This document shows positions 2,483 to 62,047 of a stretch of 64,000 nt of DNA, one piece after another. Below the pieces are notes generated by a model. It was not told where the DNA came from, did no database searches, and worked only from the letters and a program-made list of their open reading frames with translations. Positions within the stretch are counted from its first letter, which is position 1. Each line of letters begins with the position of its first letter. Both the position numbers and the translations under genes were made by a program. The stretch comes from an uncultured Candidatus Peribacteria bacterium (lineage in GTDB: Bacteria > Patescibacteriota > Gracilibacteria > Peribacterales > Peribacteraceae): contig CAZENR010000007.1 of the NCBI GenBank assembly GCA_964513925.1, positions 2,658 through 66,657 on the forward strand, given 5' to 3'.

Positions 2483-2558
2483 CGCTGACGGCCATCTTGT
2501 GGTATACTGGTAAGATGTAGCTAAAGCCAAAAATCGCGCTTTGGCACATCGTCCTACC

Positions 2559-23552: not shown

Positions 23553-23841
23553 CCACTCATGAACTGTTTTCACTGTGTTTGAATAATGGTAGAAAATTAG
23601 AACTGTCTCCATCGTACTCTTGCAAAGCATTCTTGGCAATGCCATTTTGTCGCATAGTTATTTTTTTGGCTTATTTACAACAAAAAATTAGCAATAAAAA
23701 TTTGTTGTGCTTCTCCAATCGGCGAGACAGTGCCTGGTTGTGGCCCTGCATAGGCGTGCAATCTGCGATGCCGGAAAGATTCCACTTGTCGAGTTGGCCT
23801 TCTTGCTCCAAGCGCCCTGCGCGTGTAGCCTCCTTGCCTGT

Positions 23842-25857
23842 ATGAAACTGGAAGTTTCTACAGGACAGACCAAGGCTCCGTCCGACACAGTTCTTGTGCC
23901 GGTCGTACTCGGTGACGGCAAGGACGATCGCGTGTTCCTTTTGCTGCACACCGAAGGCAAATCCGATGGTACGGATCATCTGCGCCAAGAATGTCTGAAC
24001 GTATTAAAGCATGGCGTGATGGAGGGAGAAGGCGATGCGTATACCCGCCTGGAGAGCGCTCTCAAGGAGTTAAACGGCTTACTGAAGGGCTTTTTGCTGA
24101 GCAACGCGGTCAGCGACGTCCACGCCATTGTCGGCGTGCTCGAGCAAAACGGGAATTTGCACTTGTCGCACATCGGACGCAGCGAGGCATACCTGGTACG
24201 CGATGGATCCGCTGCGCAAATTACCGAGTATTCGCGCGGCAAGCCGCCACAGGCCTTCATGCACATTGTCAGCGGACCGGTGCAGGAGCGTGATCACATT
24301 ATTCTCAGTACGCAGCGTGTACTGCGCGCAATTACCCCGGCTCAACTGGCCCAAATCGTTGCGAGAGGAGGGGATGTCGTGAAGGCGATTGCAGCCCAGC
24401 TGGAAGCAGAACGCGAGGTAGCATGCGTCGCACATCTTGCCATTCATGGACAGGGTGCTGCCGCAACGACGTCCAAAGCTGCTTCCCGTGCAAGAATGCC
24501 CGTGCAACGCGAGCGATCTCGCCGCAATGCCACACCCGTCAGTGCCGTGCTGAGCAAGCTTCGGGGTTTGCCGCTGCCTTCCATTAAGGCTCCGGCCGGT
24601 CTGCATGCCGCTGTAAAAGGAAGGGCCAAGCAGGCGCGTTCCCAGCTCAACTCGCTCGTGAGTAAGTTTGCCGCCGATTTACATGATCCGGCACGCAAGC
24701 GCCGCGCGCACCTCTTGCTGCTTGCGGGAGCGGCCGCGGTGTTCCTGATTGTCTGGATGACTATCCAGCTTTCGCTTTCCAGCCAAAAGAGCCAGAACCG
24801 CGGAGAGCTGGCCTCGCTGGTGCAGCAGATCAACGCCGATATCGCCACTGCCGACAACAGGCAACTTGCCGGAGACACCGACAGCGCAAACGCCATTTTG
24901 CAGCGCGCAGAAGATCGCGCCCGCCAAGTCATGAGCAACGAGAGCGGCCTGTTCCGCAGCGAGGCGCTGGAGCTACTCGACCGCATTAAATCCAAGCGCG
25001 AGGAAATGAATAAAGTTGTCCGCGTGGTGCCGCCGCGCGTTATGGCGAACCTCAGCGCGAAAAAGGCGGATATTGTCGCACAGGGTTTCATGGGCCTGCC
25101 GAACGGCGAGTTCATTGTCTACGACAGGCAGGACTTGTACCGGGTTTCGCTGAACACCGTCGAGCCCAGCGATCGCATTTCCACGGAAGAACTCCTGCTG
25201 GAAGGCGTGGTGTTCCCGCGCTTCCAGAGTCGCGTGTTCCTTACGACGGGCAACAGCATCATCGAGCTCATTAACGGTCAGCCGATCACCATGAAGACCG
25301 AAGATCCCGCCGGCTGGGTAACCGGCGTGGATATGAAGACATACCTGCGCTATCTCTACATCTTGGCCCCGGAGCGCAAACAAATTTACAAGTACGAGCG
25401 CCTCTCCAGCCGCTACGGACCGCCTGCGGAGTACAACGTGAACGGCGATCTCTCCGGCGCGCTGGATATGACCATCGTCGGTCCCGTATACGTTCTGAAG
25501 GACGTGTCGGTAGGCAAGAACCCCGGCGAGCCGGGCACGCGAGAGGTGCTGAAGCTGCTGCGTGGAGAAAAGCAGCCGTTTGCCATTCGAAACCTGCCGC
25601 CAGGTGCTTTGGACGGAGTGACCAAGATCTTCAAATCTTCGACAAACGGTAACTTCTACTTCATGGACCCGGACAACCGCCGTGTCGTGGTAACCACCAA
25701 CGATGGCGACTTGGGTGACTCGCTGTACCTGAAGCAGTTTGTTCTCGAGTCCGATCAAGTGGGTAAGCTGAAGGATATCTTCGTGGATGATAATGACACC
25801 CGCCTGTACGTACTGGATGAGAAGAAGGTGTACGTGATTGATTTGCAGGCCAACTAA
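23842..25857 (+). CDS. Membrane protein: N-terminal degenerate PP2C-like domain, one TM, C-terminal beta-rich (propeller-like) domain
   Basis: Start trimmed to ATG 23842 (MKLEVSTGQ...). AIVGVLEQNGNLHLSHIGRSEAYLVRDGSAAQITE resembles the PP2C block '...vGDSRaYl.r.g...qlT' but with GRSE in place of GDSR. TM HLLLLAGAAAVFLIVWMTI. The C-terminal ~330 aa is beta-strand rich. Confidence 0.6.
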   Translation: MKLEVSTGQTKAPSDTVLVPVVLGDGKDDRVFLLLHTEGKSDGTDHLRQECLNVLKHGVMEGEGDAYTRLESALKELNGLLKGFLLSNAVSDVHAIVGVLEQNGNLHLSHIGRSEAYLVRDGSAAQITEYSRGKPPQAFMHIVSGPVQERDHIILSTQRVLRAITPAQLAQIVARGGDVVKAIAAQLEAEREVACVAHLAIHGQGAAATTSKAASRARMPVQRERSRRNATPVSAVLSKLRGLPLPSIKAPAGLHAAVKGRAKQARSQLNSLVSKFAADLHDPARKRRAHLLLLAGAAAVFLIVWMTIQLSLSSQKSQNRGELASLVQQINADIATADNRQLAGDTDSANAILQRAEDRARQVMSNESGLFRSEALELLDRIKSKREEMNKVVRVVPPRVMANLSAKKADIVAQGFMGLPNGEFIVYDRQDLYRVSLNTVEPSDRISTEELLLEGVVFPRFQSRVFLTTGNSIIELINGQPITMKTEDPAGWVTGVDMKTYLRYLYILAPERKQIYKYERLSSRYGPPAEYNVNGDLSGALDMTIVGPVYVLKDVSVGKNPGEPGTREVLKLLRGEKQPFAIRNLPPGALDGVTKIFKSSTNGNFYFMDPDNRRVVVTTNDGDLGDSLYLKQFVLESDQVGKLKDIFVDDNDTRLYVLDEKKVYVIDLQAN

Positions 25858-28592: not shown

Positions 28593-29354
28593 TTATGCCA
28601 AAAGTCCGCGATACCACTCGGCGACACCCAAAAATGTCAGTAGCGTGCCTGCTGCCAAAAACGGCGCAAAGCCGATGCGCGTGCCGCGCAGCTTTGTCTT
28701 TGTGGTGATAAGCAGCAGCAGTACCCACACCGCTCCGCAACCGTATGCCAATACCAGCATTGCCACTGTAGGCCAGGAACCCAGCCATAGTCCCAGTGCC
28801 CCAGCAAGCAACATGTCCCCGCTTCCCACCCATTGCCCCCGACTAACAAGCCACTGCCAACCAAACCATGCGGCTCCAATGAGTGCGCCAAGACATGCAT
28901 CGAGCAATGATCCAAACAACAATGAGGAAACCATGCCGATAATCGCTATGCCCAGTGACAGAATGTCGGGTAACTGGCGGTGACGCGCATCGATGAGTGC
29001 CGCAATGAACACTAAGTACAGTACGCCTCCGGAAAGAGCTGCCAGTAACGGCGCATCCGGGAGGCGATGTAATGCCAGCAGGAATATGCCGGCACACGCC
29101 AGCTCCACCAGTGGGTACTGCGCAGAAATATGACACTTGCACGAACGGCATTTGCCGCCCAAGAACACGTAACTGGCAACCGGCACCAAGTCGTACCAAT
29201 GCAAGGCAGACTTACATGCAGGGCATTTGGATCTGCCGGCGACCCATTTTACTTGGCCAAACCGGAAAATCAGCACGTTCCCGAAGCTACCCAACACCGC
29301 GCCGATGACGGCGAAGAGCACCACGAGCAACGAAGCGGATTGCATGGGGACCAT
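28593..29354 (-). CDS. pilD: Prepilin peptidase (A24 family, PilD-like)
   Basis: Cys-rich N-terminal region CPACKSALHWYDLVPVASYVFLGGKCRSCK, polytopic membrane body, GSGDMLLAGALG (GxGD-type active-site block). Confidence 0.88.
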   Translation of the reverse strand: MVPMQSASLLVVLFAVIGAVLGSFGNVLIFRFGQVKWVAGRSKCPACKSALHWYDLVPVASYVFLGGKCRSCKCHISAQYPLVELACAGIFLLALHRLPDAPLLAALSGGVLYLVFIAALIDARHRQLPDILSLGIAIIGMVSSLLFGSLLDACLGALIGAAWFGWQWLVSRGQWVGSGDMLLAGALGLWLGSWPTVAMLVLAYGCGAVWVLLLLITTKTKLRGTRIGFAPFLAAGTLLTFLGVAEWYRGLLA

Positions 29355-43536: not shown

Positions 43537-44826
43537 ATGAAACATTCTTTGCTCAAACCCCGGCCAGAGAGCGTAGAAGAAGATTTTGAAGCAATTTGCT
43601 CCTACGTACATGACAAATATCGCGGAAACGCGTTGCGGCGTCTGCATGCCATCGAGCGAGATGCGCTCACAACACCCATGCACCCTCAGTGCAACGTGTT
43701 CATTACTATTCCCGCCCGTCATAACGAGCAGGGATTGCGACACACTCTGGAATTGTACGCGCAGCAGCATGCAGCGAAGCAGAGCCCCCATTTCGAAGTA
43801 GATGTGTTGATTAACGGTCCGCAAGGCGTCGATTTGTTTGACTCTCCGGCATTCACAGATGCATTTCATGCGTACGAACAACTGAGTATCCCGGTCAACG
43901 TGTTCTTGGCGACATACTCCGCACAAGAGCGTCAAATCGGCCGCATTCGTCGCGATCTTGCGGTACTCACCTTGCGTCGCATGCTCAATAGCGGACATGC
44001 AGACCCGGGAGATGCCGTGCTGGTAACCAACGATGCCGATGCGCGAGACATCGCACCCGAGTACGTTTCCACCCTCGCACAACGCTTTGCATCGAATCCT
44101 TCGATTGCCGGGGCTACGGGATTCATCGATTTGCCGGACGAGGACTTTCGGCAGGATCACGTGTTGTTTGCGGCACACCGCATGTCGCAAATGATCGAGT
44201 CCATCTATCGCGCAAAGCATCCGTTTCACCCGCTCACCATGCGCGGTGGCAGCTCTGCGTTCCGCGTGCGGGATTACGTACGCGCAGGCGGCCATGCCAG
44301 CTCTCGCATCAGCGAGCATCGACATCTGTACCGCTCGCTCGCCAAAGATCCGACTGTTTGCATCGAGCGTCTGCCGCGGGCCGGCGCAACGATCATTACC
44401 GATGCCCGCCGTCAGGTTGCCACGCTTGCCAGCGGAAGACCGGTGACTAACTCTTACCAGAATTTCGGACTTCCGGGGGACGTTGCGGAGCAGTATCAAA
44501 CAGAAGTTCCCCAATCACCGGGCAGGTTGCTGGATAGCGGGAAATTCTTGCATGACTTGCAGGAAGAAGTACGCGCGATGTTCGGGAAATTCGTGTCACT
44601 TCACCAAACATTTGGCGAAGATGCGGCAAGACAGCTCTTTCATCGTGCTGCGTTTTTTGCCGGAATGAAGCTCACCTTCGACGAGCAGGGCAGGGTTTGC
44701 ATCGATAACATCGATGCGCTTTCTGCGGGCATACGTGGTCGTTGGAATGCCGCCCTGGCAATACCTGTCACAGAGGCCTGGGCCGACGAAACACCGCCGC
44801 GCATAGCGGTGTCTTCATATGCCTAA
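43537..44826 (+). CDS. GT-A-fold glycosyltransferase-like protein (divergent)
   Basis: VFITIPARHNEQGLRHTLELYAQQ (like 'vsviIPa.NE...l..tL.sl..Q') and VLVTNDADARDI (DxD). Preferred over the antisense ORF 43387..44514. Confidence 0.55.
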   Translation: MKHSLLKPRPESVEEDFEAICSYVHDKYRGNALRRLHAIERDALTTPMHPQCNVFITIPARHNEQGLRHTLELYAQQHAAKQSPHFEVDVLINGPQGVDLFDSPAFTDAFHAYEQLSIPVNVFLATYSAQERQIGRIRRDLAVLTLRRMLNSGHADPGDAVLVTNDADARDIAPEYVSTLAQRFASNPSIAGATGFIDLPDEDFRQDHVLFAAHRMSQMIESIYRAKHPFHPLTMRGGSSAFRVRDYVRAGGHASSRISEHRHLYRSLAKDPTVCIERLPRAGATIITDARRQVATLASGRPVTNSYQNFGLPGDVAEQYQTEVPQSPGRLLDSGKFLHDLQEEVRAMFGKFVSLHQTFGEDAARQLFHRAAFFAGMKLTFDEQGRVCIDNIDALSAGIRGRWNAALAIPVTEAWADETPPRIAVSSYA

Positions 44827-50089: not shown

Positions 50090-50498
50090 TTTGTCCTGCT
50101 CTTCTATACGCCGGATTCTGTCTGTCCCGCTTTGGGCGGGAGAGGCGACCATCTCTCTAGGCCAATCATTGCTGAAGGGCTCAAGCGGAGGGGTAGCTGG
50201 CGCGACGGAACCATCGCGAATTCCTGCCACCCAATTCCTCCTTGCACCACCAAGAGTTTACCGATCCGCCTACTTTCGCAGGCGAGATGCCCCGTAGGGC
50301 CGTTTCACTCCCATCGTTTGGTCCCCGGAGACCGGAGATGTACGTGACGGGACTCGTCTCTGTGGCACTGGTCCTCACACGCGTTTTGGATATATCGCGC
50401 GTGGGTGGGCGTTACCCACATGGCGTTCCATTGGTGTCCGGACGTTCCTCTCGTCCCGCCGAAGCGGGGCCAGCGGTCGCCCAAAGAGCAGGACTCTC
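50090..50498 (-). ncRNA. rnpB: RNase P RNA (bacterial, type-A-like)
   Basis: Minus strand: P1 GTCCTGCTCTT (50494-50484) pairs with AAGAGCAGGAC (50103-50093). CR-I/P4 5' strand GAGAGGAACGTCCGGAC (compare GAGGAAAGUCCGGGC). GGGAGTGAAACGG (compare GGGUGAAAGGG). GGTAAACTCTTGGTGGTGCAAGG (compare GGUAAACUCCACCCGGAGCAAGG). CR-V ACAGAATCCGGCGTA (compare ACAGAACCCGGCUUA). The ORFs listed here are spurious. Confidence 0.85.
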
Positions 50499-50766: not shown

Positions 50767-51465
50767 TCACTTGGAGGTCTTCCAGGTGGTCAGCCCGAGC
50801 ACGATCCCCACCTTCGCAGTGGTGGTCGGCTGTGGCACAGCGGATATGAAGAATCCGCGGGTGCCCTCCGCGGTGTTCAGGTCGTCCTTGTAGCGCGGGC
50901 TGACGTAGAAGAGCGGTCCGCCGGCCGCCTTCTCGCCGTAGTTGCCCATGCTACTCCACATGTTGCGGACCTTGCCGTCCGCCGGCTCGTCGCCACCGTC
51001 GTCCTTGCCGGTGTAGACGTTGGCCCCGTAGTCGGTGTCCTTGTCCGTGGTCAGGGCCATCTGCTCGATCATGGGCGCAAGCTTCTTGAACATGATCGAC
51101 GCGTTGTCTCGGTCGGGTCGGTCGTAGCGCAGGACGAGCGCCGCGACCTTCTTGCCGCCGTTGTCGAACTCTTCCAACGACCACTGGATGCTGCCGCCCT
51201 TGCCGACCTGTGCCATGGCGGGGTACTTCTTCTCGCCGATGAACAGGTCGATGTCGATGCGGCCGGAGTCATCCGCCTTGATGGTGACCTTGTCGCCCGC
51301 CTTGGCTAGCTTCTTCATCACGTCGGTGGCGGGGGTCATCTTGGCGGGGGTGTCCTTGTCCTGTGCGGACGCGGACGGGGTTTGCGTGGTGGCCAAGATC
51401 GCGAGGATCAGGCCGAGGAACATGCCGGTGGAGACCGCCGGCGCGGTTCGCATGTATTGGTGCAT
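50767..51465 (-). CDS. Hypothetical secreted protein (islet gene 1)
   Basis: ATG 51465 (alternative 51453). Signal peptide MRTAPAVSTGMFLGLILAILATTQTPSASA. No motif recognised. Confidence 0.65.
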   Translation of the reverse strand: MHQYMRTAPAVSTGMFLGLILAILATTQTPSASAQDKDTPAKMTPATDVMKKLAKAGDKVTIKADDSGRIDIDLFIGEKKYPAMAQVGKGGSIQWSLEEFDNGGKKVAALVLRYDRPDRDNASIMFKKLAPMIEQMALTTDKDTDYGANVYTGKDDGGDEPADGKVRNMWSSMGNYGEKAAGGPLFYVSPRYKDDLNTAEGTRGFFISAVPQPTTTAKVGIVLGLTTWKTSK

Positions 51466-52816: not shown

Positions 52817-53551
52817 ATGAAAATCCTCCTGTACAACCTGGCATACTGCACCGGCGTGGACGGATCCACCCACAAGTATATTTCCCACGGGTTACGGCAC
52901 TTTGTGGGCTCGTTGCGTAGACGTAAGACGCACATCAACGACCTGCACACCATCATCGAGCGTGAGCAGCCCGATGTGTGCTGTTTTGTGGAAGTGGACT
53001 CCGACTCGCCGCTCATCGATCGCCTGCTGCATAAGTACAAGTACACCGATATTTCCAATAAGTACCGCGCGGGTAGCCTTTTCAGCAAAGCGCCTTTCTA
53101 CAAGAAGAAATCGCTGTGCATTCTTTCCAAATTCCCGTTCGGCGTGCAGCGGCACTACTTCACCCATGGGTTTAAGCGCCTGCTTACCGAGGCAAAGTTC
53201 CACAACGGCTTTTCATTGTTCTTAAGCCATAACTCGCTGCGTCCTTGGGTGCGTAAGCGCCAGTTCCACCTCATTTCGCTGCTGGCGGGAGACGGCCGCA
53301 AGAAGGTCATTACCTGCGGCGACTACAATATTCTCGCCGGCACTCACGAACTGGAGCCACTGCGCAAGCGTGGCATGAAGCTGGCAAACAACCCCACTGA
53401 CTTCACGTTCCCGGCGCACAGACCGCGCAAGACGCTGGATGTCTTTTTGTGCTCCGACGATATTCGCGTCAAACGCATTCGAGCCCTCAAGGATGTTCGC
53501 CTGTCGGATCATTTGCCCGTGGTGCTGGAAGTCGAAAGCGGACACGAGTAG
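52817..53551 (+). CDS. Endonuclease/exonuclease/phosphatase (EEP) family hydrolase
   Basis: Start trimmed to ATG 52817 (MKILLYNLAY...). VCCFVEVD, VITCGDYNIL, RLSDHLPVVLEV (SDH) are EEP catalytic blocks. First gene of the lipid operon. Confidence 0.7.
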   Translation: MKILLYNLAYCTGVDGSTHKYISHGLRHFVGSLRRRKTHINDLHTIIEREQPDVCCFVEVDSDSPLIDRLLHKYKYTDISNKYRAGSLFSKAPFYKKKSLCILSKFPFGVQRHYFTHGFKRLLTEAKFHNGFSLFLSHNSLRPWVRKRQFHLISLLAGDGRKKVITCGDYNILAGTHELEPLRKRGMKLANNPTDFTFPAHRPRKTLDVFLCSDDIRVKRIRALKDVRLSDHLPVVLEVESGHE

Positions 53552-53568: not shown

Positions 53569-54156
53569 ATGAATCTTGCCACATACGTTACCGTTCTGCG
53601 CTTAGCACTTATTCCCGTGGGAGTAATGCTGCTGTTTACCACTGGTGTTCCAGGGAATTACCTGCTTGCGCTGGGAGTGTTTGTTTTCGCGTTGCTTACC
53701 GACTGCCTGGATGGCTACCTGGCTCGCAGGTACAAGATGGTGACGGCGTTCGGCGGGTACTTAGACGGTGTTGCCGACAAGCTGCTGACGCTCTTGTACT
53801 TCGTCTACCTGCAGAACGCAGGTTTGTATCCGCTGTGGCTGCTCGAAATCGCCATCGCCCGCATGTTCATTGTGACAAGTCTGCGCAGCTACTTAATTAG
53901 CCAAGTTGCCAGTGTGGGCGAGCTGAAGACGGGGAAGTGGCAGGGAATACTCATCGGACTTTCGTTGATACTGGGCATCCTTGCGTTGGCCGCCAAGGCC
54001 GGCCAGGCAATGCCGCAACATGCCGAAACACTTGCTGCGTGGGCCGCATACACCATGTACGCAGGAGTCCTGGTGAGCCTGCTCTTCTCGCCGCGAGCCG
54101 CAGTTGCGTACGCGCGACAAGCCATGGCGGGCCTGAAGAAGCCCAAGAACGCGTAA
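53569..54156 (+). CDS. pgsA: CDP-alcohol phosphatidyltransferase (PgsA-like)
   Basis: TDCLDGYLARRYKMVTAFGGYLDGVADK matches D-x2-DG-x2-AR-x8-G-x3-D-x3-D. About 6 TM. Confidence 0.8.
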   Translation: MNLATYVTVLRLALIPVGVMLLFTTGVPGNYLLALGVFVFALLTDCLDGYLARRYKMVTAFGGYLDGVADKLLTLLYFVYLQNAGLYPLWLLEIAIARMFIVTSLRSYLISQVASVGELKTGKWQGILIGLSLILGILALAAKAGQAMPQHAETLAAWAAYTMYAGVLVSLLFSPRAAVAYARQAMAGLKKPKNA

Positions 54157-54192: not shown

Positions 54193-54792
54193 TTGCCCGT
54201 GCGCATACACCCGCTCCTGTCGCCGAACGCATTCACCGTGCTGCGGCTGCTGCTGACGCCGGTGGCGTTGTGGTTGCTGCTAGATCCGGCAGTACCCCAT
54301 CATTTCCGCTGGGCAACGGTTGTGTTTGTGGTTGCCATGACAACCGATGTCATCGACGGATGCATTGCCAGGCGTTACAACCTCATCACCAGACTTGGAA
54401 ATTATCTGGATCCGCTTGCGGATAAATTACTCATCAATCTCATGCTGTTTGCATTCGTTGCGCTCGGCCTGGTCCCGTATTGGCTGGCAGCCGTACTCTT
54501 TGCGCGCGATATGCTTTCCAGCGACTTCAAAAGCTTTGCGGCGATGCAGAAGGTGCATGTGTCTTTTGCCCCAGTTGCCGGCAAAGTGAAGGCATTGCTG
54601 CAAACCGTGGGTATTACCTGCTTTCTCGTCGCTCTCTCCGGCCACGAATCTGCGGCACTGCCTCCCGTTGCAATAGAGGCACTGCTGAATGCGGGTCTGG
54701 GCTGCCTGATTGTTGCGCTCTGCGTAGGCTTGTACGGTCTGGCTCGACTGTTGTCCAAAAGCGCTCGCCTCGTATTCCATGTCGCCCAATGA
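54193..54792 (+). CDS. Second CDP-alcohol phosphatidyltransferase paralog
   Basis: TDVIDGCIARRYNLITRLGNYLDPLADK (same signature). TTG start at 54193, or GTG at 54199. Confidence 0.8.
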   Translation: MPVRIHPLLSPNAFTVLRLLLTPVALWLLLDPAVPHHFRWATVVFVVAMTTDVIDGCIARRYNLITRLGNYLDPLADKLLINLMLFAFVALGLVPYWLAAVLFARDMLSSDFKSFAAMQKVHVSFAPVAGKVKALLQTVGITCFLVALSGHESAALPPVAIEALLNAGLGCLIVALCVGLYGLARLLSKSARLVFHVAQ

Positions 54793-55940
54793 ATACGTTT
54801 CAGTACTTTCTGCCCACGCGGATCATCTTCGGCCGCGGCACAGTTGCATCGCTTCCCGAATACGTGCGCAGCGAATTTCCTTCGGCGCGCAAAATCTTGC
54901 TGGTGACGGGGCGAACATTCCTGCGCTCCCACGCCATTACGGACAAAATCGCCACGCTGCTCAGCGCGTATGACGTTCTTATGTTCGATCAGGTGGAATC
55001 CGGCCCCACCCGCCAAACACTGGATGCCGCTCTTGCCGAAGAGAAGCGATTCCGCCCGGATGTAGTGCTTGGCATTGGCGGCGGCAGCGCCATGGATTTA
55101 GCCAAGGCAGTAGCCATTCTGGCTCGTAACTCTGGTACGCTCGATGAATATCAGCAGGGCAAGAAAATGGCGCACGATGCCATTCCGTACGTGGCTGTGC
55201 CTACAACAACAGGAACTGCATCCGAGATGACCGTGTGGTCGGTCATCATTAATAACGCTGGAATGTACGCCGGCAAGCGCAAGAGCTTCTCAGACGAGCG
55301 TATGTATCCCAAACTGGCGGTGATTGATCCGGATTTAACGGCAACGCTGTCGCCGGAGGCAACCATGGGTACTGCGCTGGATATTCTGTCGGCATCCATA
55401 GAATCCCTGTGGTCCAAGAAGCGCAATCCCGTCTCTACGTGCTTTGCGGTGCAGGCCATTACATTGGCGCTCAAGCATATCCCTCGCGTGTACGCCGATC
55501 CGCACAACCTACAGGAGCGCGAGCAACTATGTCTTGCCTCTCTTTTCTGCGGCTTTGCCGTCTCCAATTCCCGAACCGGTGCGCCGCATAAGGTGTCGTA
55601 TCCTCTAAGTTCGCATTACAAAGTGCCTCACGGCGCGGCTTGTATGCTCTCCTTGCCTTATTTTCTGGAATTCTTCGGCGAGCGAGAACCGGCATTATTG
55701 CAAGATGTTCTGGTTGCCACACAGTGCCATTCGCCCAAGCAGGCGGCGGATCTGCTGCGGACGTTGGTGCACTCCGTCGGTTTCCCCAACTGCCTGAAAG
55801 ATGCCGGTGTGGCGCCGGAAGATATAGAGTTCATTGCACGCAACAGCTACGTGCCGCCGCAGCAGCAAGAGGATCCGGTGCCCATGAGTTACAAAGAGTT
55901 CGTGGCGATTCTGGAGCGAGCGTATTCCGCAGATCGCTGA
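54789..55940 (+). CDS. Iron-containing alcohol dehydrogenase family protein with an altered metal site
   Basis: ATG 54789 overlaps the upstream TGA (ATGA). VLGIGGGSAMDLAKAVA, VAVPTTTGTASEMT, GAPHKVSYPLSSHYKVPHGAA. The usual 'D-A-L-x-H' block reads ALDILSASIE (His replaced by Ser). Confidence 0.8.
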   Translation: MNTFQYFLPTRIIFGRGTVASLPEYVRSEFPSARKILLVTGRTFLRSHAITDKIATLLSAYDVLMFDQVESGPTRQTLDAALAEEKRFRPDVVLGIGGGSAMDLAKAVAILARNSGTLDEYQQGKKMAHDAIPYVAVPTTTGTASEMTVWSVIINNAGMYAGKRKSFSDERMYPKLAVIDPDLTATLSPEATMGTALDILSASIESLWSKKRNPVSTCFAVQAITLALKHIPRVYADPHNLQEREQLCLASLFCGFAVSNSRTGAPHKVSYPLSSHYKVPHGAACMLSLPYFLEFFGEREPALLQDVLVATQCHSPKQAADLLRTLVHSVGFPNCLKDAGVAPEDIEFIARNSYVPPQQQEDPVPMSYKEFVAILERAYSADR

Positions 55941-55982: not shown

Positions 55983-56507
55983 ATGAGTATCCCGGAGGTG
56001 CTGTACCTCTTCTTGCCGGCATTCGTGGCCAATGGCGCTCCCGTGGTAGCGCGCAAAATTCCTGGCATAACGTCTTGGACAACGCCGATTTGCGTTCGCG
56101 CCTTCGGCGCCAATAAAACGTATCGCGGTTTCGCCGTTGGCGTAGCGTCCGCAATTGTGACAGCTCTGGTGCAATTCTCCTTGCGCAACCAATGGATCTT
56201 TAAGGAGCTTACCGAGCTGCATAACTCCTTGGGGCAAAGTGCGCTGGTCGGGTTTTTATTGGGTTTTGGCGCACTTTTCGGAGACTTGGTGAAAAGCTTC
56301 GTAAAGCGACGCATCGGCATTGCGCCGGGGCAAGCATGGCCAGTGCTCGATGGCATCGATTACATTCTTGGAGCCGCACTCTTCATCCTGCCGCTGTACA
56401 AGGCTTCGCTGATGGATATTGTGGTGCTCATCGTCGCCGCGCCGCTGCTGAGCTTGCTTGCAAACAGCGTCTCGTTCGTCCTTGGCTGGAAGGATGTTTG
56501 GTATTAA
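55983..56507 (+). CDS. carS: CDP-archaeol synthase family (CarS / DUF46) homolog
   Basis: 174 aa, about 5 TM. LFLPAFVANGAPVV, NKTYRGF, GFGALFGDLVKSFVKRRIGIAPGQAWPVLDGIDYILGAALF, C-terminal GWKDVWY. Lacks the CdsA PGHGG...DR.D signature. Confidence 0.75.
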   Translation: MSIPEVLYLFLPAFVANGAPVVARKIPGITSWTTPICVRAFGANKTYRGFAVGVASAIVTALVQFSLRNQWIFKELTELHNSLGQSALVGFLLGFGALFGDLVKSFVKRRIGIAPGQAWPVLDGIDYILGAALFILPLYKASLMDIVVLIVAAPLLSLLANSVSFVLGWKDVWY

Positions 56508-56511
56508 TCCC

Positions 56512-57042
56512 ATGCGGCAATCGCCATTCCAATGCGCAGGCAGGCTGCTCTTAAGCCTTGGTGGCATCGGCTTTCTGCCGCGGCTTTCACCCACCATAGC
56601 CACCGCGGTGTCGGCACTGTTGCTGTGGCTGGTTTCCATCGCACTTCCCGCAGATCCACAACAACGACTTGCCCTGCTTCTTGCCCTTTTTATTGGCTTT
56701 GCCGCCGCAGCATTCATTGCTCTTGCGCGATGTGTTCCGGCACAGCATTACGACCAGCGCTATGTGGTCATTGACGAATTTCTAGGCCTGTTTGCTGCAT
56801 TGTTTCCATCATTACTAGCAGGCGTGCCAGCTCCCGCATTGCTGCTTGTCGCTTTTGTTGTCTTTCGGGTCATCGACCACACCAAGCCCCTATTCATTCG
56901 CAGCATAGACAAGTGTAATTCGCCTGCGAGCGTACTTCTCGATGATGTCATCGCCGGCATCTACACCGCTTTTGTCCTGGCGGTCATGCTGGAATTTTTC
57001 CCTCTTGCGGCCCTGCATGCTGCTCCATTGGCGGCAATGTAA
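56512..57042 (+). CDS. pgpA: Phosphatidylglycerophosphatase A
   Basis: Start trimmed to ATG 56512. VVIDEFLG, FRVIDHTKP, LLDDVIAGIYTA are PgpA blocks. Confidence 0.8.
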   Translation: MRQSPFQCAGRLLLSLGGIGFLPRLSPTIATAVSALLLWLVSIALPADPQQRLALLLALFIGFAAAAFIALARCVPAQHYDQRYVVIDEFLGLFAALFPSLLAGVPAPALLLVAFVVFRVIDHTKPLFIRSIDKCNSPASVLLDDVIAGIYTAFVLAVMLEFFPLAALHAAPLAAM

Positions 57043-59251
57043 GCGTAAATACGGTCACGCCTTTTTCGCTCTGGAACGCGAGAGTGCCACCTATGGCTTC
57101 TGCGGCAATTTGCGAAATGTACAAGCCCAGTCCGTTGCCATCGGTATTCGTGGATTGCGCGTTTTTCGCTCGGAACAGCTTACTGAAGACCTTGTGTTGC
57201 TCTTCCGGTGGAATGCCAATACCCGTATCGCGCACCTGCAATACTAATGCTCTGGCAGCTTGCGTCAGCGAAACCCTAACCGTACTGGCTTGGTTGCCGT
57301 ACTTGAGTGCGTTGGCCAGCAAGTTTTCTATCACCAGCCGCAGCAGCACCTCATCGGTGTGGATGGCTGCCGGCACTCCGGCGTTGGCCGTAAGATCGAT
57401 GCGAATTTGCCGCTTAGCGGCATCAACCTGGGCTGCTTTTACCACATCTTGAGCCAGCGCAATCGGGTTTACCGTATCCGTGGCCGCTGAGAGCGTACCA
57501 AGTTCAATGCGCGACACGTTAAGCAGCGCGTTCACCAATCGCACCATTCGCTCATTGGATGTAGATACCTGCTGCACATAACTTTGCTGGTCTTCGTTCA
57601 GCGGGCCGACATCTTTACTCAGCAGCATTTCCAAATACCACCGCATGGACGACAGCGGCGTGCGCAGCTGGTGCGACACCAAGGAAATAAACTCCGATTT
57701 CATGCGATCGATCCGGCGGTCTTCCGTCGTATCGCGGAAAATTGCCACTGCCCCAGAGCAGTGCCAGCCGCGCAATACCGGCGTAATGCGCAGCGCCAGC
57801 GGCATCTTGCTGCCATCCTTACGTTTGAGCGTCAATTGCGGGTCTTGCGTGGGGGCGAATTTCTGCTTCGATGCCAGCACTTGTGTGATGGGGTGTGAAT
57901 CGCGCGGGAGCGCCGCTGCTGAGGCATCTTCTATACCGAGTACCGCTTCGCAACGCTTGCCCACCGCCTCTTCCTGGCTCCACCCGGTCAACAGACATGC
58001 CGCATCATTCAGTAATTCAACGTTGCCCTCGGCATCGGTTACCAACAGCCCGTACTCGATACTCCGTAAAATCGCATCATCTTGGGCGTGTTGCTCCATG
58101 AGCGCCTTGGTGCGCACGCGAACAAGTTCTTCCAGGTGATCGTGCGATTGTCTCAGCCGGCCGGTTAAGTCGAACGCTGCCGCGTCCAGCCGCTCTATTT
58201 CGTTTCCGGTATGAATGGAGCGCGCAAATAACCAACGCTTGGATTCCAGGCCTTCCAACTTTCTGGTCAAATCTTGCAGCGGTTCGGTAATGCGCTGCGC
58301 AAGGCAGTACATGGTCAGTGCCAACAGGAGAATGAGCACGATGCCCGCAATCAGCAGCTTGGCTGCCAGCATCGCAAGCGGCAGGTCGATTTCGTGCGTG
58401 TCGATTTGCACTACAATGCCCCAGCCCATGGCAGGCAGAGAGCGGTACGCAGCCAGCACCCGGATACCTGCGTAGTCGTATGTCTCCTCAATGCCCTCGT
58501 ACCCGGTCACTGCCAATGCCAGTGGCATCTTGCTGCTTAGGCGTGACTCGAATCCGCCCAAATCCAACATTGCCGTCTCGTGTACCCCTTTAGGCTTGTG
58601 GAGCAGCAGCAACTGGCCATCGTTTCTAGCTGACAGCAGAATGTCCGTCGTTTTTCCAAGTTCGTCGGTACTGAGTACCTGGTCCAAAATCGGTTTGGCG
58701 CGGAATATCGCAACCATACGTCCGTTTGCTGTCGGCGTTGCAATTGCATACAAGTCCCAGCCGCGCTCGGTAAGTAGGGTGATCAGCTGTGTCGATGTAC
58801 CCCGCAGACCACGCAGGGCTTGAAGCATGTCATTGGTTGGCTGTTGCCCGGCCAACACTTGCACTGCTCCGGATCTGGAAAGCGTAAACAATCCCTGGAA
58901 TCCAATCAGCTGCGTAAGCTGCGGAATATTTTCCAGACGCTGTTCTTTCGCAAGCGCTGCTACCTGCTCTCGCCGTGCAGAAAGAACGCTTTCGAGCAAT
59001 TCCTCTTTGGCATGAATGATGGATTGCAACTGCGTCGTTGCGCGCGAATACATTTCACTTCGCGCCAATACCAGCGCCGCAACGATTGTTGCGGTAATGG
59101 CGAATGCCGCCAGTACAGACGTCTCGATAAACAGCGTTTTTCGCAATGAGCCGTTGGCGGATTCAATGTGGGTGTTCACGTAGTGACGTAATCTTTGAAT
59201 TATAGCAGAAATATGCGGTTTTTTCCACTGGTCTGCGGCTGATATCGACAT
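56984..59251 (-). CDS. Sensor histidine kinase (TM, extracytoplasmic domain, TM, HAMP, PAS, HisKA, HATPase)
   Basis: H-box FISLVSHQLRTPLSS; N box LLANALKYG; G1 VRDTGIGIPPEE; G2 GNGLGLYISQ. No response regulator in the window. 59-nt convergent overlap with pgpA. Confidence 0.88.
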   Translation of the reverse strand: MSISAADQWKKPHISAIIQRLRHYVNTHIESANGSLRKTLFIETSVLAAFAITATIVAALVLARSEMYSRATTQLQSIIHAKEELLESVLSARREQVAALAKEQRLENIPQLTQLIGFQGLFTLSRSGAVQVLAGQQPTNDMLQALRGLRGTSTQLITLLTERGWDLYAIATPTANGRMVAIFRAKPILDQVLSTDELGKTTDILLSARNDGQLLLLHKPKGVHETAMLDLGGFESRLSSKMPLALAVTGYEGIEETYDYAGIRVLAAYRSLPAMGWGIVVQIDTHEIDLPLAMLAAKLLIAGIVLILLLALTMYCLAQRITEPLQDLTRKLEGLESKRWLFARSIHTGNEIERLDAAAFDLTGRLRQSHDHLEELVRVRTKALMEQHAQDDAILRSIEYGLLVTDAEGNVELLNDAACLLTGWSQEEAVGKRCEAVLGIEDASAAALPRDSHPITQVLASKQKFAPTQDPQLTLKRKDGSKMPLALRITPVLRGWHCSGAVAIFRDTTEDRRIDRMKSEFISLVSHQLRTPLSSMRWYLEMLLSKDVGPLNEDQQSYVQQVSTSNERMVRLVNALLNVSRIELGTLSAATDTVNPIALAQDVVKAAQVDAAKRQIRIDLTANAGVPAAIHTDEVLLRLVIENLLANALKYGNQASTVRVSLTQAARALVLQVRDTGIGIPPEEQHKVFSKLFRAKNAQSTNTDGNGLGLYISQIAAEAIGGTLAFQSEKGVTVFTLTLPPMEQHAGPQEGKIPA

Positions 59252-59300: not shown

Positions 59301-59747
59301 CTAGCGAGTGACACTGATGGTCACGCTGTTCTCGGCACCAGGCGAGGAAACCGTGATGCGACTGGTCGTGGCGTTCTTGGAGATGATGTAGTTCGTGCCG
59401 GTGGCAGTTGCGCTCTGCGGGTCAGAGGGCAAGGCGACGATGTACGAACCGGTCAACATGTTCAGGTTAATGCCGTTGTTGCAGCTGACGTTCACGCCGC
59501 TCTTACATACCTTGGTGGCAACGGTCGTAATGGTGGTCGGGATGTTGCCGTTGTTATCCAGCGCGTACTGATACACGGCGTTGAGGATGGTGTTTACGTC
59601 GGTGCGGCGCTGTGCATTGCGGGCATCTGCGAGCTGCTTAGTGGGGTTGATGGCCACGATCACCACGGAGGCGAGAATGGCGATGATACCGATGACGAGC
59701 AGAAGCTCGATGAGGGTGAAACCCTTGCGGGAAGAAAAAGTGGCCAT
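59301..59747 (-). CDS. Type IV pilin-like protein (major-pilin paralog 1)
   Basis: MATFSSRKG|FTLIELLLVIGIIAILASVVIVAINP: prepilin cleavage/methylation site with Glu5. 148 aa. Confidence 0.88.
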   Translation of the reverse strand: MATFSSRKGFTLIELLLVIGIIAILASVVIVAINPTKQLADARNAQRRTDVNTILNAVYQYALDNNGNIPTTITTVATKVCKSGVNVSCNNGINLNMLTGSYIVALPSDPQSATATGTNYIISKNATTSRITVSSPGAENSVTISVTR

Positions 59748-59929: not shown

Positions 59930-60373
59930 CTAGCGAGTAACGCTGATCGATGCACTCTGCTCTGCACCTGGGGCGGCGACCGTTACGCGGTTGCCAGCCT
60001 TGATGACAGTGTAGTTCGTACCAGTGGCGGTTGCGCTCTGTGGGTCGAACGGCATACCGACGATGTACGAGCCGGTAAGCATGTTCAGGCTGATACCGTC
60101 GCTGTCACAGTCTACGTTCACACCGCTCTTACAAATGAGCTTGGTGGTCGTGGTGATCGTGGACGGCAGGTTACCGTTGTTGTCGATCGAGTACTGGTAG
60201 ATCGCGTTCAGGATGGTGTTCACGTCGCTGCGGCGCTGCGCATTGCGTGCGTCACCAAGCTGCTTGGTGGGGTTGATGGCCACGATAACGATGGCGGCCA
60301 AAATGGCGATGATACCGATAACGAGCAGAAGCTCGATGAGGGTGAAACCCCCGCGGGTGGAACGAGTGGTCAT
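59930..60373 (-). CDS. Type IV pilin-like protein (major-pilin paralog 2)
   Basis: MTTRSTRGG|FTLIELLLVIGIIAILAAIVIVAINP. Collinear with paralog 1 along its whole length (...DARNAQRR.DVNTILNA.YQY..DNNGN.P..IT...K..CKSGVNV.C...I.LNMLTGSYIV..P.DPQSATATGTNY...). Confidence 0.88.
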   Translation of the reverse strand: MTTRSTRGGFTLIELLLVIGIIAILAAIVIVAINPTKQLGDARNAQRRSDVNTILNAIYQYSIDNNGNLPSTITTTTKLICKSGVNVDCDSDGISLNMLTGSYIVGMPFDPQSATATGTNYTVIKAGNRVTVAAPGAEQSASISVTR

Positions 60374-60554: not shown

Positions 60555-60995
60555 TTACCGCGTCACGGATAGGTACTCGCCTTGCTCTGCGCCTGGCGCG
60601 TCTACGGTTACGCGGTTGCCAATCCGCACGATTGTGTAAAACGTGGTTGTGGCTGTGGCAGATTGCGGGTCGTACGGAAGCTGTGCGATGTACGAACCTG
60701 TCAGTATGTTCAGGTTCACCAACCCGCTGCAGTCTATGTTCACGCCGCTGCGACAAATGGCGGTGGGGGTGAGCGGAACTGTGGGCGGGAAGTTGCCGTT
60801 ATGATCCACCGAGTACTGGTACACCGCATCCACAATGACCCGCAGGTCGGACTCGCGCTTGGCGTTACGCGCTTCGGCTAGCTGTTTATTGGGGTTAATG
60901 GATACAATAACAACGCCCGACAACACGCCTAAAATACCAATAACGATCAGAAGCTCTATGAGCGTAAACCCGGCATGTGCTCTTCGTACATTCAT
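60555..60995 (-). CDS. Type IV pilin-like protein (major-pilin paralog 3, more divergent)
   Basis: MNVRRAHAG|FTLIELLIVIGILGVLSGVVIVSINP...DPQSATAT...VTVDAPGAEQGEYLSVTR. Confidence 0.88.
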   Translation of the reverse strand: MNVRRAHAGFTLIELLIVIGILGVLSGVVIVSINPNKQLAEARNAKRESDLRVIVDAVYQYSVDHNGNFPPTVPLTPTAICRSGVNIDCSGLVNLNILTGSYIAQLPYDPQSATATTTFYTIVRIGNRVTVDAPGAEQGEYLSVTR

Positions 60996-60998
60996 GCG

Positions 60999-61616
60999 TT
61001 AGCAGGAAACAGCATCAACGGATTGCTCGCAGGTATCGTTGCTGCAGAAATACCAGAAGTACTTTCCGGAGCCACAGGTGACTGCTGGGCAAGTCCCGCA
61101 ACCGCCCGATTCGCTTTTGTCGTCAGGGAAGAGCGTCACATTTCCTTGGAAATGCCGGGTGTAGTCTTTTGGAACCGGTAATTTCAATCGTGCAGTGAGG
61201 TCGAAAGAAACCGTGGCGCTCACGCCGCCCACATTACGGAAGGCGAGATTGCTCATGGTGATGTCGTCACCCAACTCATACGATACGTCTTGCTTTTCTA
61301 TCATCATCAAGTCGCCGCCGCTTTGGGCGAACATAGTGGGGTGCTCGCCGTTGATTGCCATTTGCAGCACGATGATTGTTCCGCTGGCATTCGATGCGGG
61401 ATATAAAATTGTCTCTGCCCGTCGCATGCGTCTGGTCATCGACTGCAATACCTGCGTTCCGCGCTGTTCTAACGCAGCAATGCCCTGTTGGCGAACGCGT
61501 GCTTCCTGCGTGGAAAGGATGACCCCAACAATCACGGTGCCCATTATTGATAAAATCCCCAGGAACAATAGTGTTTCCACCATAGTGAAGCCGCTTCTGA
61601 TGTATCGATTCGTCAT
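60999..61616 (-). CDS. Minor pilin-like protein with Cys-rich C-terminus
   Basis: Start ATG 61616 overlaps the upstream stop (ATGA). MTNRYIRSG|FTMVETLLFLGILSIMG. The C-terminal ~36 aa SGGCGTCPAVTCGSGKYFWYFCSNDTCEQSVDAVSC carry 7 Cys. Confidence 0.75.
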   Translation of the reverse strand: MTNRYIRSGFTMVETLLFLGILSIMGTVIVGVILSTQEARVRQQGIAALEQRGTQVLQSMTRRMRRAETILYPASNASGTIIVLQMAINGEHPTMFAQSGGDLMMIEKQDVSYELGDDITMSNLAFRNVGGVSATVSFDLTARLKLPVPKDYTRHFQGNVTLFPDDKSESGGCGTCPAVTCGSGKYFWYFCSNDTCEQSVDAVSC

Positions 61617-62047
61617 GAGCAAAGCGAAAAAATGGAAACCTCCTGCCATGAGTAAATCTTTGTTTGCGGAAGCACTTCTTGGACGATGATTTCCAGCCGG
61701 CGGTAGTTTTGTCCTACGCGACCCTCTGCGCAGAGCAGGCGGTTCGTGTTTCCGGTGCCGCCTATAGTAAGCACTTCGCACTGGCCGTTGCCCAGCGTTA
61801 CGGTTTCCCCGCCGATATACGATGGATTCTCGCGTAATTTTTGCAGGGCGTATTCAGAGCATCCCTGAGCCAAGGCCATGGCCTCGGTAGATTGCTGCAC
61901 CGACAAGCTGATGTCGCTGGAAGTACTTCCTAGGAACAGGAGCGATGCCACGATAGCCGTAGCGACAGTGCCAATGATCAGAATGGTCATCAGCAGAATG
62001 TAGCCGTCGCGCTGGCGAAGGGCCGAGGTTGGCAGGCAAGGCATCAT
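61613..62047 (-). CDS. Pseudopilin-like protein (PilX/GspK-like, no Glu5)
   Basis: ATG 62047 overlaps the upstream stop (ATGA). MMPCLPTSALRQRDG|YILLMTILIIGTVATAIVASLLFL. The ORF-track start 62107 is a TTG. Confidence 0.65.
   Translation of the reverse strand: MMPCLPTSALRQRDGYILLMTILIIGTVATAIVASLLFLGSTSSDISLSVQQSTEAMALAQGCSEYALQKLRENPSYIGGETVTLGNGQCEVLTIGGTGNTNRLLCAEGRVGQNYRRLEIIVQEVLPQTKIYSWQEVSIFSLCS

Follow-up and report, generated by a model that had tools for sequence, protein, structure and literature searches.

In the present study, we analysed a 64-kb stretch of DNA (the window), taken from a contig that is 222 kb or more in length, and found that one of its genes (55983..56507, + strand) encodes a membrane protein of the CarS-like family, to which the archaeal CDP-archaeol synthases belong, in a bacterial host. 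The family was confirmed, and CdsA was ruled out, by profile search, by sequence match to the CarS of Aeropyrum (ApCarS) and by fold. We consider it probable that the product is a CTP:lipid-phosphate cytidylyltransferase of the CarS family, which supplies CDP-lipid for phosphatidylglycerol (PG) synthesis, most likely from scavenged diacyl-phosphatidate. The host was recognised as bacterial from RNase P class A, Mfd, SecA, DnaN and type IV pili in the window, and the closest relatives of the genome are Candidatus Peribacteria.

Family and fold of the CarS-like protein

The open reading frame begins with ATG and ends with a TAA stop codon at 56505-56507. The reading frame of 174 aa, the approximately five helices and all the sequence blocks quoted in an earlier note on this DNA were verified, namely LFLPAFVANGAPVV, NKTYRGF, GFGALFGDLVKSFVKRRIGIAPGQAWPVLDGIDYILGAALF and the C-terminal GWKDVWY. 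In the Pfam profile search, the protein matched PF01864 (CarS-like) with E=4.9e-30 and 105.3 bits, far above chance and above the cut-off of 22, and the alignment ran end to end (residues 5-174 on profile positions 7-175 of 175), which bears out the CarS assignment of the earlier note. The competing profile, PF01148 (CTP_transf_1, the CdsA family), gave a local match only, of 34.5 bits between residues 44-113 and profile positions 169-230; a full-length match to this profile of ~264 positions was not obtained, and the NCBIfam CdsA model was not matched. In addition, the sequence matched ApCarS (5guf_A) with E=2e-14 and 32% identity. The AF2 model of the protein (pLDDT 91.5, pTM 0.87) was compared with solved structures by Foldseek, as had been proposed, and the best match was Aeropyrum CarS, 5GUF (prob 1.00, TM 0.68/0.74, rmsd 2.8 Å), so that the fold of five transmembrane helices is that of ApCarS. 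The CdsA of Thermotoga maritima (TmCdsA, 4Q2G) ranked second, with TM 0.50 and prob 0.97.

Polyprenol kinases that depend on CTP also belong to the CTP_transf_1 clan. Together with the local PF01148 match and the heavy investment of Peribacteria in polyprenol-linked glycans, this would allow the protein to be a lipid kinase of that superfamily (dolichol/phytol kinase-like), using CTP to phosphorylate polyprenol or diacylglycerol. We regard such a kinase as very improbable, however, because the full-length profile and the fold are both best for CarS and the CarS motif set is intact; furthermore, the neighbours and fusion partners described below use CDP-lipid or dephosphorylate phosphatidylglycerophosphate (PGP), and none of them is a glycan-carrier enzyme.

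The alignment of 83 CPR, DPANN and ApCarS sequences showed K45, D101, S105, K108, R109, D123 and D126 to be invariant, with K57, D100, S104, K107, R108, D122 and D125 as their respective equivalents in ApCarS. The loss of conserved Asp, Lys or Arg positions relative to archaeal CarS, which the earlier note had named as a sign against the family, was not found, since every family-invariant residue is kept. The motif set of the CTP/metal-binding cytoplasmic loops (K-T-x-R/E-G, G-D-x3-S-F-x-K-R and D-x2-D) is likewise present. K45, D101, S105-x2-K108-R109 and D123-x2-D126 are expected to be the ligands of CTP and Mg2+/K+, a prediction based on conservation and on the residue roles that a review (PMC9385802) gives for the structure of ApCarS. 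Some changes are specific to the clade of this protein: in place of G124 most other family members have Q, so that their motif is DQxD and not DGID, and P120, W169 and the C-terminal VWY are further examples.

Comparison with CdsA

Bacterial CdsA (TmCdsA, 4Q2E/4Q2G, and E. coli CdsA) shares the superfamily with the window protein and, as proposed here, the type of reaction, which feeds PgsA. The two differ in length, 174 aa against the 264 positions of the Pfam model and the 261-269 residues of the TmCdsA chains, and in the PGHGG block and PS01315 signature, which belong to CdsA and are absent here. A regular-expression scan for a PS01315-style signature (S-x-[LIVMF]-K-R-x4-K-D-x-[GSA]-x2-[LIF]-[PGS]-x-H-G-G-x-D-R-x-D) found none in the six frames of the 64-kb window and none in 1.3 Mb of CarS-flanking DNA from 87 loci. 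The corresponding region of the window protein reads GDLVKSFVKRR ... DGID, and its S-x2-K-R ... D-x2-D core is what we take to be the counterpart of the CdsA signature. The earlier statement that the protein is not a CdsA and is without PGHGG is thus upheld. Its companion, that no DR.D is present, is literally true but overlooks the homologous D-x-x-D, present as the family-invariant D123-G-I-D126.

The gene cluster in the window

The CarS-like gene is the fifth of six genes on the same strand, in the order EEP hydrolase, two CDP-alcohol phosphatidyltransferases, iron-containing alcohol dehydrogenase (Fe-ADH), CarS-like and PgpA. The first gene (52817..53551, +) encodes an EEP-fold hydrolase (endonuclease/exonuclease/phosphatase) of ~244 aa, with 63 bits on PF03372; no solved structure and no informative NCBIfam model matched it. 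It may hydrolyse lipids or head groups, and it likewise lies upstream of the first transferase in four related loci (L085, L086, L087 and L001).

The CDP-alcohol phosphotransferase motif D-x2-D-G-x2-A-R ... G-x3-D-x3-D is found in both transferases, and both score just under the cut-off of the pgsA model TIGR00560 (109.1 bits). T1 (53569..54156, +; 195 aa) is PgsA-like, with 102 bits on PF01066 and 92.5 bits on TIGR00560; it contains DCLDGYLARRYKMVTAFGGYLDGVAD and is 49-52% identical to the T1 of L085 and L087. T2 (54193..54792, +; 199 aa) is PgsA-like or ClsA-like, with 114.9 bits on PF01066, 106.7 bits on TIGR00560 and 84 bits on the ClsA model. It contains DVIDGCIARRYNLITRLGNYLDPLAD and is orthologous, with 40-43% identity, to the T2 of L085 and L087, which is inverted there.

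The ATG of Fe-ADH (54789..55940, +; 383 aa) overlaps the stop codon of T2 (ATGA). Its Pfam matches are Fe-ADH with 141 bits and ADH_Fe_C with 116 bits, and its best NCBIfam match, TIGR03405, reached 219 bits, below the cut-off of 424. Fe-ADH was considered as a G1P dehydrogenase (G1PDH) and rejected, as the G1PDH model gave it 31 bits, compared with the 219 and 141 bits above, and its position is not conserved: among ~85 loci, Fe-ADH adjoins CarS in this locus alone. The last gene (56512..57042, +; 176 aa) encodes PgpA, phosphatidylglycerophosphatase A, with 87 bits on Pfam PF04608. The neighbours had been named correctly in the earlier note, but the spacing was one nucleotide too wide in each case: read from the sequence, the gap from Fe-ADH to the CarS-like gene is 42 nt (claimed 43) and that from the CarS-like stop to PgpA is 4 nt (claimed 5). 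With the genes packed this closely on one strand, the placement of the CarS-like gene in a phospholipid head-group operon is borne out.

Conservation of the gene order and gene fusions

The gene order transferase, CarS-like, PgpA is found again in both Peribacteria and Gracilibacteria, with genes abutting or overlapping. It was seen in L003/L008 (47% identity), in L004/L005/L010 of the Gracilibacteria, in L016 and in L085-L087. PgpA directly follows CarS on the same strand in nine bacterial loci and, among the loci compared, stands beside CarS in bacterial loci only; for this count the seed profile of PgpA alone was used, as an iterated profile drew in CarS through fusion proteins. Of the 85 loci, 59 have a CDP-alcohol transferase no further than four genes from CarS. 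In the relatives at 78-79% identity, the second transferase is adjoined by an SDR/3-beta-HSD-type oxidoreductase in place of Fe-ADH.

PgpA and CarS also occur as one fused protein, in at least 47 clusters (formed at 90% identity), with identities as low as 41%, from Nomurabacteria, Paceibacterota and Pacebacteria, that is, CPR bacteria of the Paceibacteria type. These fusions (seen in L039, L081 and L088) adjoin a transferase and a PLD-type Cls-like gene. They (for example L081:9461-10465 and P0121-P0167) combine the same two predicted activities as the adjacent genes of the window, but in a single polypeptide of ~325-334 aa with PgpA at the N-terminus, and their CarS domain, with 70-76 bits on PF01864, has diverged further. 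In Saccharibacteria and DPANN archaea the phosphatase partner of CarS is PHP or PAP2, not PgpA: a PHP phosphoesterase directly precedes CarS in 12 Saccharibacteria-type and 11 DPANN loci, and DPANN-like contigs contain a PAP2(DUF212)-CarS fusion with a transferase after it.

Adjacency, the two kinds of fusion (PgpA-CarS and PAP2-CarS) and the PHP neighbours together suggest functional coupling of the cytidylyltransferase with a PGP phosphatase. The earlier proposal that the CarS-like protein provides the CTP-dependent activation for the neighbouring transferases is strengthened by the gene order kept down to 47% identity and by the PgpA-CarS fusions. Because the pairing of CarS and PgpA, sometimes fused, recurs across CPR, the CarS-like enzyme probably does the job of CdsA. 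The wording that it occupies the CdsA position can be kept for this shared role, but not for a shared locus, as pgsA-pgpA operons have no canonical CdsA position.

Distribution of the family

The CarS family is widespread in CPR bacteria, and its members are intermixed with DPANN archaeal sequences in the tree. The gene is not an isolated case of transfer. The closest relatives outside CPR are DPANN archaeal CarS (34-42% identity), and those of the DPANN cassettes (Woesearchaeota, Nanoarchaeota) are about as distant from the window protein as other CPR lineages. No direction of transfer was drawn because the NJ phylogeny was poorly resolved, the bootstrap value being 50 for the clade of the window protein and 69 for that of Saccharibacteria. 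The DPANN cassettes resemble the locus studied here, in that CarS likewise adjoins a CDP-alcohol transferase and a phosphatase and the hosts are also lipid-scavenging episymbionts. They differ in the phosphatase, PHP or PAP2/DUF212 where the window has PgpA, and in their archaeal genomic background (Dph2, Rpr2), and their lipid cores are presumed archaeal. The Tn-seq tables of Southlakia (oral Saccharibacteria) contained no PF01864 or PF01148 gene. In the literature, no paper was found on bacterial CarS or on CDP-archaeol synthase in CPR, Patescibacteria or DPANN, and the preprint of Coleman et al. does not treat CarS.

The lipid substrate

Acylglycerols accounted for all 72 intact polar lipids of a cell fraction dominated by CPR, whose genomes have no complete lipid synthesis (PMC7242380). 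Peribacteria are without fatty-acid synthesis, and the KO table of the complete, closed genome of Ca. Peribacter riflensis includes a DgkA-type kinase and the PG consumer Lgt, but no cdsA/K00981 (PMC4736985). Since CPR bacteria do not make fatty acids or phospholipids de novo and yet have acylglycerol membranes, scavenged diacyl-phosphatidate is the most likely substrate, and the enzyme would thus differ from archaeal CarS in acting on an acyl and not an isoprenoid lipid. The characterised archaeal CarS enzymes prefer DGGGP over phosphatidate, and AfCarS was unable to complement an E. coli cdsA mutant (PMC9385802); given this preference and this failure, activity on diacyl-phosphatidate would need a shift of specificity. 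ApCarS and AfCarS share with the window protein the Pfam family over the full length, a size of ~170 aa, the five helices and the invariant residues. They differ in their archaeal hosts, and the window gene, unlike archaeal CarS, is operonic with a bacterial PgpA. On the equivalog model for CDP-2,3-bis-(O-geranylgeranyl)-sn-glycerol synthase (NCBIfam NF003114, cut-off 148 bits), ApCarS, used as control, passed with 183.5 bits while the window protein stayed below with 129.8; other CPR members scored 129-143 and DPANN members 129-159.

A genuine CDP-archaeol synthase, which activates DGGGP or archaetidic acid made via the mevalonate pathway or scavenged from archaeal hosts, is what the family, the fold and the substrate preference of the characterised enzymes (PMC9385802) would suggest, as would the closeness to DPANN CarS and the mixing with it in the tree. 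No use has been assigned to the products of the mevalonate pathway of Peribacteria, which also possess a weak GGR-like gene, and CDP-archaeol can be processed by PgsA and PgpA of bacteria (PMC7852524). In that case, the cell would hold some archaeal-type phospholipids. However, we found no G1PDH, GGGPS or DGGGPS/UbiA in the 64-kb window and none recurring near the bacterial CarS loci, and the adjoining Fe-ADH fits the G1PDH model poorly. The acylglycerol lipids of the CPR-enriched fraction (PMC7242380), the restriction of the PgpA partner to bacterial loci and the low NF003114 score also stand against this reading, which is therefore quite unlikely.

The enzyme might instead be auxiliary, with a canonical CdsA elsewhere making the bulk CDP-diacylglycerol and the CarS-like protein serving lyso- or unusual lipid phosphates or a special head group. 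The part of the genome examined was 64 kb, the CarS module is patchy within Peribacteria, and the two transferases with a variable oxidoreductase (SDR in relatives, Fe-ADH here) hint at a specialised head group. Such a division of labour nevertheless appears unlikely, as paralogous pathways would be unusual in the highly reduced CPR genomes, the complete Ca. P. riflensis table is without cdsA (PMC4736985), and the PgpA fusions and the adjacency to PgsA-like genes point to the mainstream PG route. Ca. P. riflensis also appears to be without carS, pgsA and pgpA, so the CarS module may be accessory and not essential.

Proposed pathway and its meaning

We propose that the CarS-like enzyme is the lipid-activating first step of a compact, presumably co-transcribed PG module in a Peribacteria-type CPR bacterium. 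The substrate could come, for example, from host lipid by way of diacylglycerol and a DgkA-type kinase, which would give diacyl-phosphatidate. The CarS-like enzyme would convert CTP and this membrane lipid phosphate into CDP-lipid and PPi, the adjoining PgsA-like transferase or transferases would move the phosphatidyl group onto glycerol-3-phosphate, and PgpA would then take off the terminal phosphate to give PG. Cardiolipin or some other head group may be the product of the second transferase and the oxidoreductase that accompanies it. Such a module would explain head-group control and the supply of PG for lipoprotein maturation in CPR bacteria without de novo lipid synthesis.

A wider reading, put forward tentatively and with less conviction than the function proposed above, is that much of CPR has no CdsA at all and makes CDP-lipid by a CarS-type enzyme common to DPANN, through transfer or common descent, and that this CarS has switched to, or tolerates, fatty-acyl phosphatidate on the bacterial side of the 'lipid divide'. 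If so, CarS, a CDP-alcohol transferase and a phosphatase would form a minimal head-group remodelling kit for host-stolen lipids, which the two radiations of ultrasmall episymbionts would have kept by convergence. A CarS-family enzyme in a PgsA/PgpA operon, even fused to PgpA, in bacteria with acyl membranes would be a natural counter-example. The automatic label 'CDP-archaeol synthase' is probably misleading in thousands of bacterial MAGs. With its 174 aa, the protein is a compact and easily expressed candidate in which the determinants of isoprenoid versus acyl specificity in the superfamily may be sought.

Results

The genome of the window is bacterial. A class-A bacterial RNase P RNA lies at 50091-50492 on the minus strand, the GC content is 56%, and bacterial genes for Mfd, DnaN, SecA, RNase J, RecR, prepilin peptidase (28593-29354) and type IV pilins are present. 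Six genes were found head to tail on the + strand, with no convincing internal terminator in the cluster. They encode a hydrolase of the endonuclease/exonuclease/phosphatase (EEP) fold (52817-53551), two CDP-alcohol phosphatidyltransferases, T1 (53569-54156) and T2 (54193-54792), which had already been described upstream of the CarS-like gene, an iron-type alcohol dehydrogenase (Fe-ADH; 54789-55940) whose ATG overlaps the T2 stop (ATGA), the CarS-like protein (55983-56507) and PgpA (56512-57042). The gaps on the two sides of the CarS-like gene, first counted as 43 and 5 nt, are 42 nt after Fe-ADH and 4 nt before the pgpA ATG at 56512. The D-x2-D-G-x2-A-R...G-x3-D-x3-D motif is complete in both transferases, which fit the pgsA model best (T1 92.5 and T2 106.7 bits; cut-off 109.1), and T2 scores 84 bits on the ClsA cardiolipin-synthase model. 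With 141 bits on Pfam Fe-ADH, the dehydrogenase next to the CarS-like gene belongs to the classical group-III ADHs; its assignment as a G1P dehydrogenase was ruled out, with just 31 bits on the G1PDH model.

The CarS-like gene is an intact ORF from ATG to TAA, and translation of its 174 aa confirmed all the sequence blocks that were first quoted for it. The protein belongs to the CarS-like family by profile, fold and motifs. Residues 5-174 match positions 7-175 of the 175 in PF01864 (E=4.9e-30, 105.3 bits), whereas the match to the CdsA family PF01148 is local (34.5 bits, residues 44-113), and the protein fails the defining tests of CdsA, as the earlier note had held. A scan of the window in all six frames gave no PROSITE-style CdsA signature. 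The literal CdsA element D-R-x-D is missing as claimed, but its homologous counterpart exists as D123-G-I-D126. The sole NCBIfam match is the CDP-archaeol synthase equivalog NF003114, at 129.8 bits and thus under the curated cut-off of 148 bits.

The CarS fold was supported by alignment with the sequence of Aeropyrum pernix CarS (ApCarS, 5guf_A) over residues 3-172 (E=2e-14) and by a confident AlphaFold2 model built from 22 homologs (pLDDT 91.5, pTM 0.87). The top PDB match of this model was 5GUF (prob 1.00, TM 0.68/0.74, rmsd 2.8 Å, 32% identity), and Thermotoga CdsA (4Q2G) was the runner-up with TM 0.50. When 83 CarS domains were aligned (46 bacterial, 36 DPANN archaeal and ApCarS), G42, K45, G49, D101, S105, K108, R109, D123 and D126 were invariant, and the Asp, Lys and Arg positions of archaeal CarS are kept: K57, D100, S104, K107, R108, D122 and D125 of ApCarS correspond to K45, D101, S105, K108, R109, D123 and D126. 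In ApCarS, two cytoplasmic loops form the pocket for CTP and Mg2+/K+ (PMC9385802). Since the invariant residues sit in these loops, the enzyme looks catalytically competent. The window clade has G124 where most other family sequences have Q, and also differs from other members at P120, W169 and the C-terminal V-W-Y.

Among named homologs, those of Candidatus Peribacteria are nearest (77% identity), followed by those of Gracilibacteria and other Patescibacteria. When 1.84 billion cluster representatives were searched with a profile, the family numbered 3,168 members at a threshold of E≤1e-3 and 549 members at E≤1e-30, and 501 relatives were confirmed in species-representative genomes. Among the best 80 of these 501, CPR (Peribacteria, Gracilibacteria, Falkowbacteria, Parcubacteria, Saccharibacteria and Nomurabacteria) and DPANN (Woesearchaeota and Nanoarchaeia) alternate at similar identity (31-50%); archaeal markers (such as Dph2) beside CarS in many archaeal-labelled loci support the labels. 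In a neighbour-joining tree, the window protein falls within an all-bacterial, PgpA-context clade of 11 sequences with a bootstrap of only 50%; a Saccharibacteria clade has 69%, and the other CPR and DPANN sequences are interleaved. Because of this weak bootstrap and interleaving, the direction of transfer is left uninferred. On NF003114, ApCarS scores 183.5, DPANN 129-159 and CPR 129-143 bits, so ApCarS passes the cut-off, and the sampled CPR and most DPANN proteins do not rise above it and thus lie further from the model. CarS-like annotations were also seen in MAGs of non-CPR bacteria (proteins P0186 and P0195 of Omnitrophota; locus L028 of a 'Nitrospirae' MAG).

In the related loci L085-L087 (78-79% identity), the whole neighbourhood is kept except for T2 and its oxidoreductase, a pair which is inverted and in which the enzyme is of SDR/3β-HSD type instead of Fe-ADH. 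The pairs lie at 54193-55940 in the window (Fe-ADH) and at L085:6291-7910 and L087:5095-6664 (SDR/3β-HSD, HpnA-like). As an oxidoreductase stands beside T2 in all of them, the partner was retained and its fold swapped. This has the appearance of a non-homologous displacement, and it is a hint that the alcohol substrate of T2 is made or modified by its NAD(P)-type oxidoreductase. Among about 85 loci, Fe-ADH adjoins CarS in the window only. The order transferase, CarS, PgpA, with genes abutting or overlapping, holds at 46-55% identity in L003/L008 (1.02-Mb contig), Gracilibacteria L004/L005/L010 and L016. Of 85 loci drawn from genome and metagenome collections, 59 (36 bacterial, 23 archaeal) have a CDP-alcohol transferase no more than four genes away from CarS, in most cases as the next gene upstream and in the same orientation. 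Directly upstream of the trio in some Gracilibacteria-type loci (L003:8968-9462, L004:8941-9504, L010), where the window lineage has its EEP hydrolase, is a YdjM/Zn-dependent phospholipase-C-like membrane hydrolase, which may perform the first step of lipid scavenging.

Phosphatases are also fused to CarS. In Nomurabacteria/Paceibacteria-type CPR, PgpA (PF04608, residues 13-164) and CarS (PF01864, residues 172-332) form one polypeptide of about 325-334 aa (L081:9461-10465, L039:2577-3581, L088:6001-6978; proteins P0121-P0167), and a database search gave at least 47 such clusters with identity down to 41%. The L088 fusion overlaps an upstream CDP-alcohol transferase and faces a PLD-type (Cls-like) gene. 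On DPANN-like contigs with the archaeal markers Dph2 and Rpr2, a fusion of DUF212/divergent PAP2 with CarS precedes a CDP-alcohol transferase (L089:635-1552, P0170; L090:130-1047, P0169); the pathway logic is that of the bacterial fusion, but the phosphatase fold is different. In 23 loci, the gene just upstream of CarS, in the same orientation, encodes a PHP phosphoesterase (PF02811 and PF13263); 12 of these loci are Saccharibacteria-type bacterial and 11 DPANN archaeal (e.g. L022:5610-6248, L030, L040, L064, L065). The pattern suggests a cassette common to bacteria and archaea, and the PHP protein is a possible unrecognised PGP phosphatase.

Other features of the window were recorded. A PAS/HisKA histidine kinase gene (56984-59251, minus strand) is convergent with pgpA, with a 3' overlap of ~59 nt that is kept in L085-L087 (~56 nt). 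Three tandem paralogous pilin-like genes (59301-59747, 59930-60373 and 60555-60995, minus strand) encode proteins of ~146-148 aa that start with the prepilin motif GFTLIELL and are conserved in the C-terminal half; a fourth pilin-like gene lies at 60999-61781 (minus strand). At 50767-51465 (minus strand) is an ORF of 232 aa whose N-terminus resembles a signal peptide. Its GC3 is 0.91, against 0.5-0.75 in nearly all other window genes, and L085-L087 keep it as a gene of 231-235 aa that lacks a Pfam match there. Large ORFs without a Pfam match at E≤1e-5, at 3662-6367 (minus strand, 901 aa), 23707-25857 (+, 716 aa), 2541-3524 (+, 327 aa) and 43537-44826 (+, 429 aa), are typical CPR 'dark' proteins.

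Discussion

Three unrelated phosphatase families, PgpA, DUF212/PAP2 and PHP, adjoin or are fused to CarS, always alongside a CDP-alcohol transferase, and this makes a strong guilt-by-association case for CarS in a head-group pathway. Such a pathway would lead from a lipid-phosphate to a CDP-lipid, then to a phosphatidylglycerophosphate-like intermediate and finally to the dephosphorylated head group. From this context, we infer that the protein acts as a cytidylyltransferase, that its product feeds the adjacent transferases and that it replaces CdsA, as the earlier note proposed; functionally, its role would be most like that of CdsA. Neither the window nor 1.3 Mb of DNA flanking CarS at 87 loci contains a CdsA signature.

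Scavenged diacyl-phosphatidate is favoured as the substrate. A 0.1-µm cell fraction dominated by CPR yielded 72 intact polar lipids, every one an acylglycerol, and as complete lipid synthesis is missing from CPR genomes, scavenging is the presumed source of their lipids (PMC7242380). Fatty-acid synthesis is absent from Peribacteria (PMC4736985). For the closed genome of Ca. Peribacter riflensis, the KO table includes a DgkA-type kinase and several copies of Lgt, a consumer of phosphatidylglycerol, and has no entry for cdsA, carS, pgsA, pgpA or an acyltransferase (PMC4736985 supplementary file 2). Neither GGGPS, DGGGPS nor G1P-dehydrogenase genes occur in the window or recur near bacterial CarS genes. 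Together with the class of the Fe-ADH, these points are in favour of an acyl substrate. The preference of characterised CarS for DGGGP and the failure of Archaeoglobus fulgidus CarS to complement a cdsA mutant of E. coli (PMC9385802) advise caution here, and an isoprenoid ether lipid is kept alive as a minority possibility by the mevalonate pathway of Peribacteria, which has no assigned role, and by the acceptance of CDP-archaeol by bacterial PgsA and PgpA (PMC7852524). The head-group module is patchy even within Peribacteria, since cdsA, carS, pgsA and pgpA are all missing from the KO table of Ca. P. riflensis, which also has a weak GGR-like gene.

Public annotation already names such CPR genes 'CDP-archaeol synthase'. 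A full-text literature search found no paper discussing CarS in CPR bacteria, its PgsA/PgpA linkage or the fusions, and a lipid study surveying 675 CPR genomes does not mention a CarS-type activation step (PMC7242380). The finding challenges, in a specific and testable way, the view of CarS and CdsA as partitioned along the lipid divide, with its key biochemical claim drawn by inference, and it offers a plausible account of head-group tailoring in lipid-scavenging CPR bacteria.
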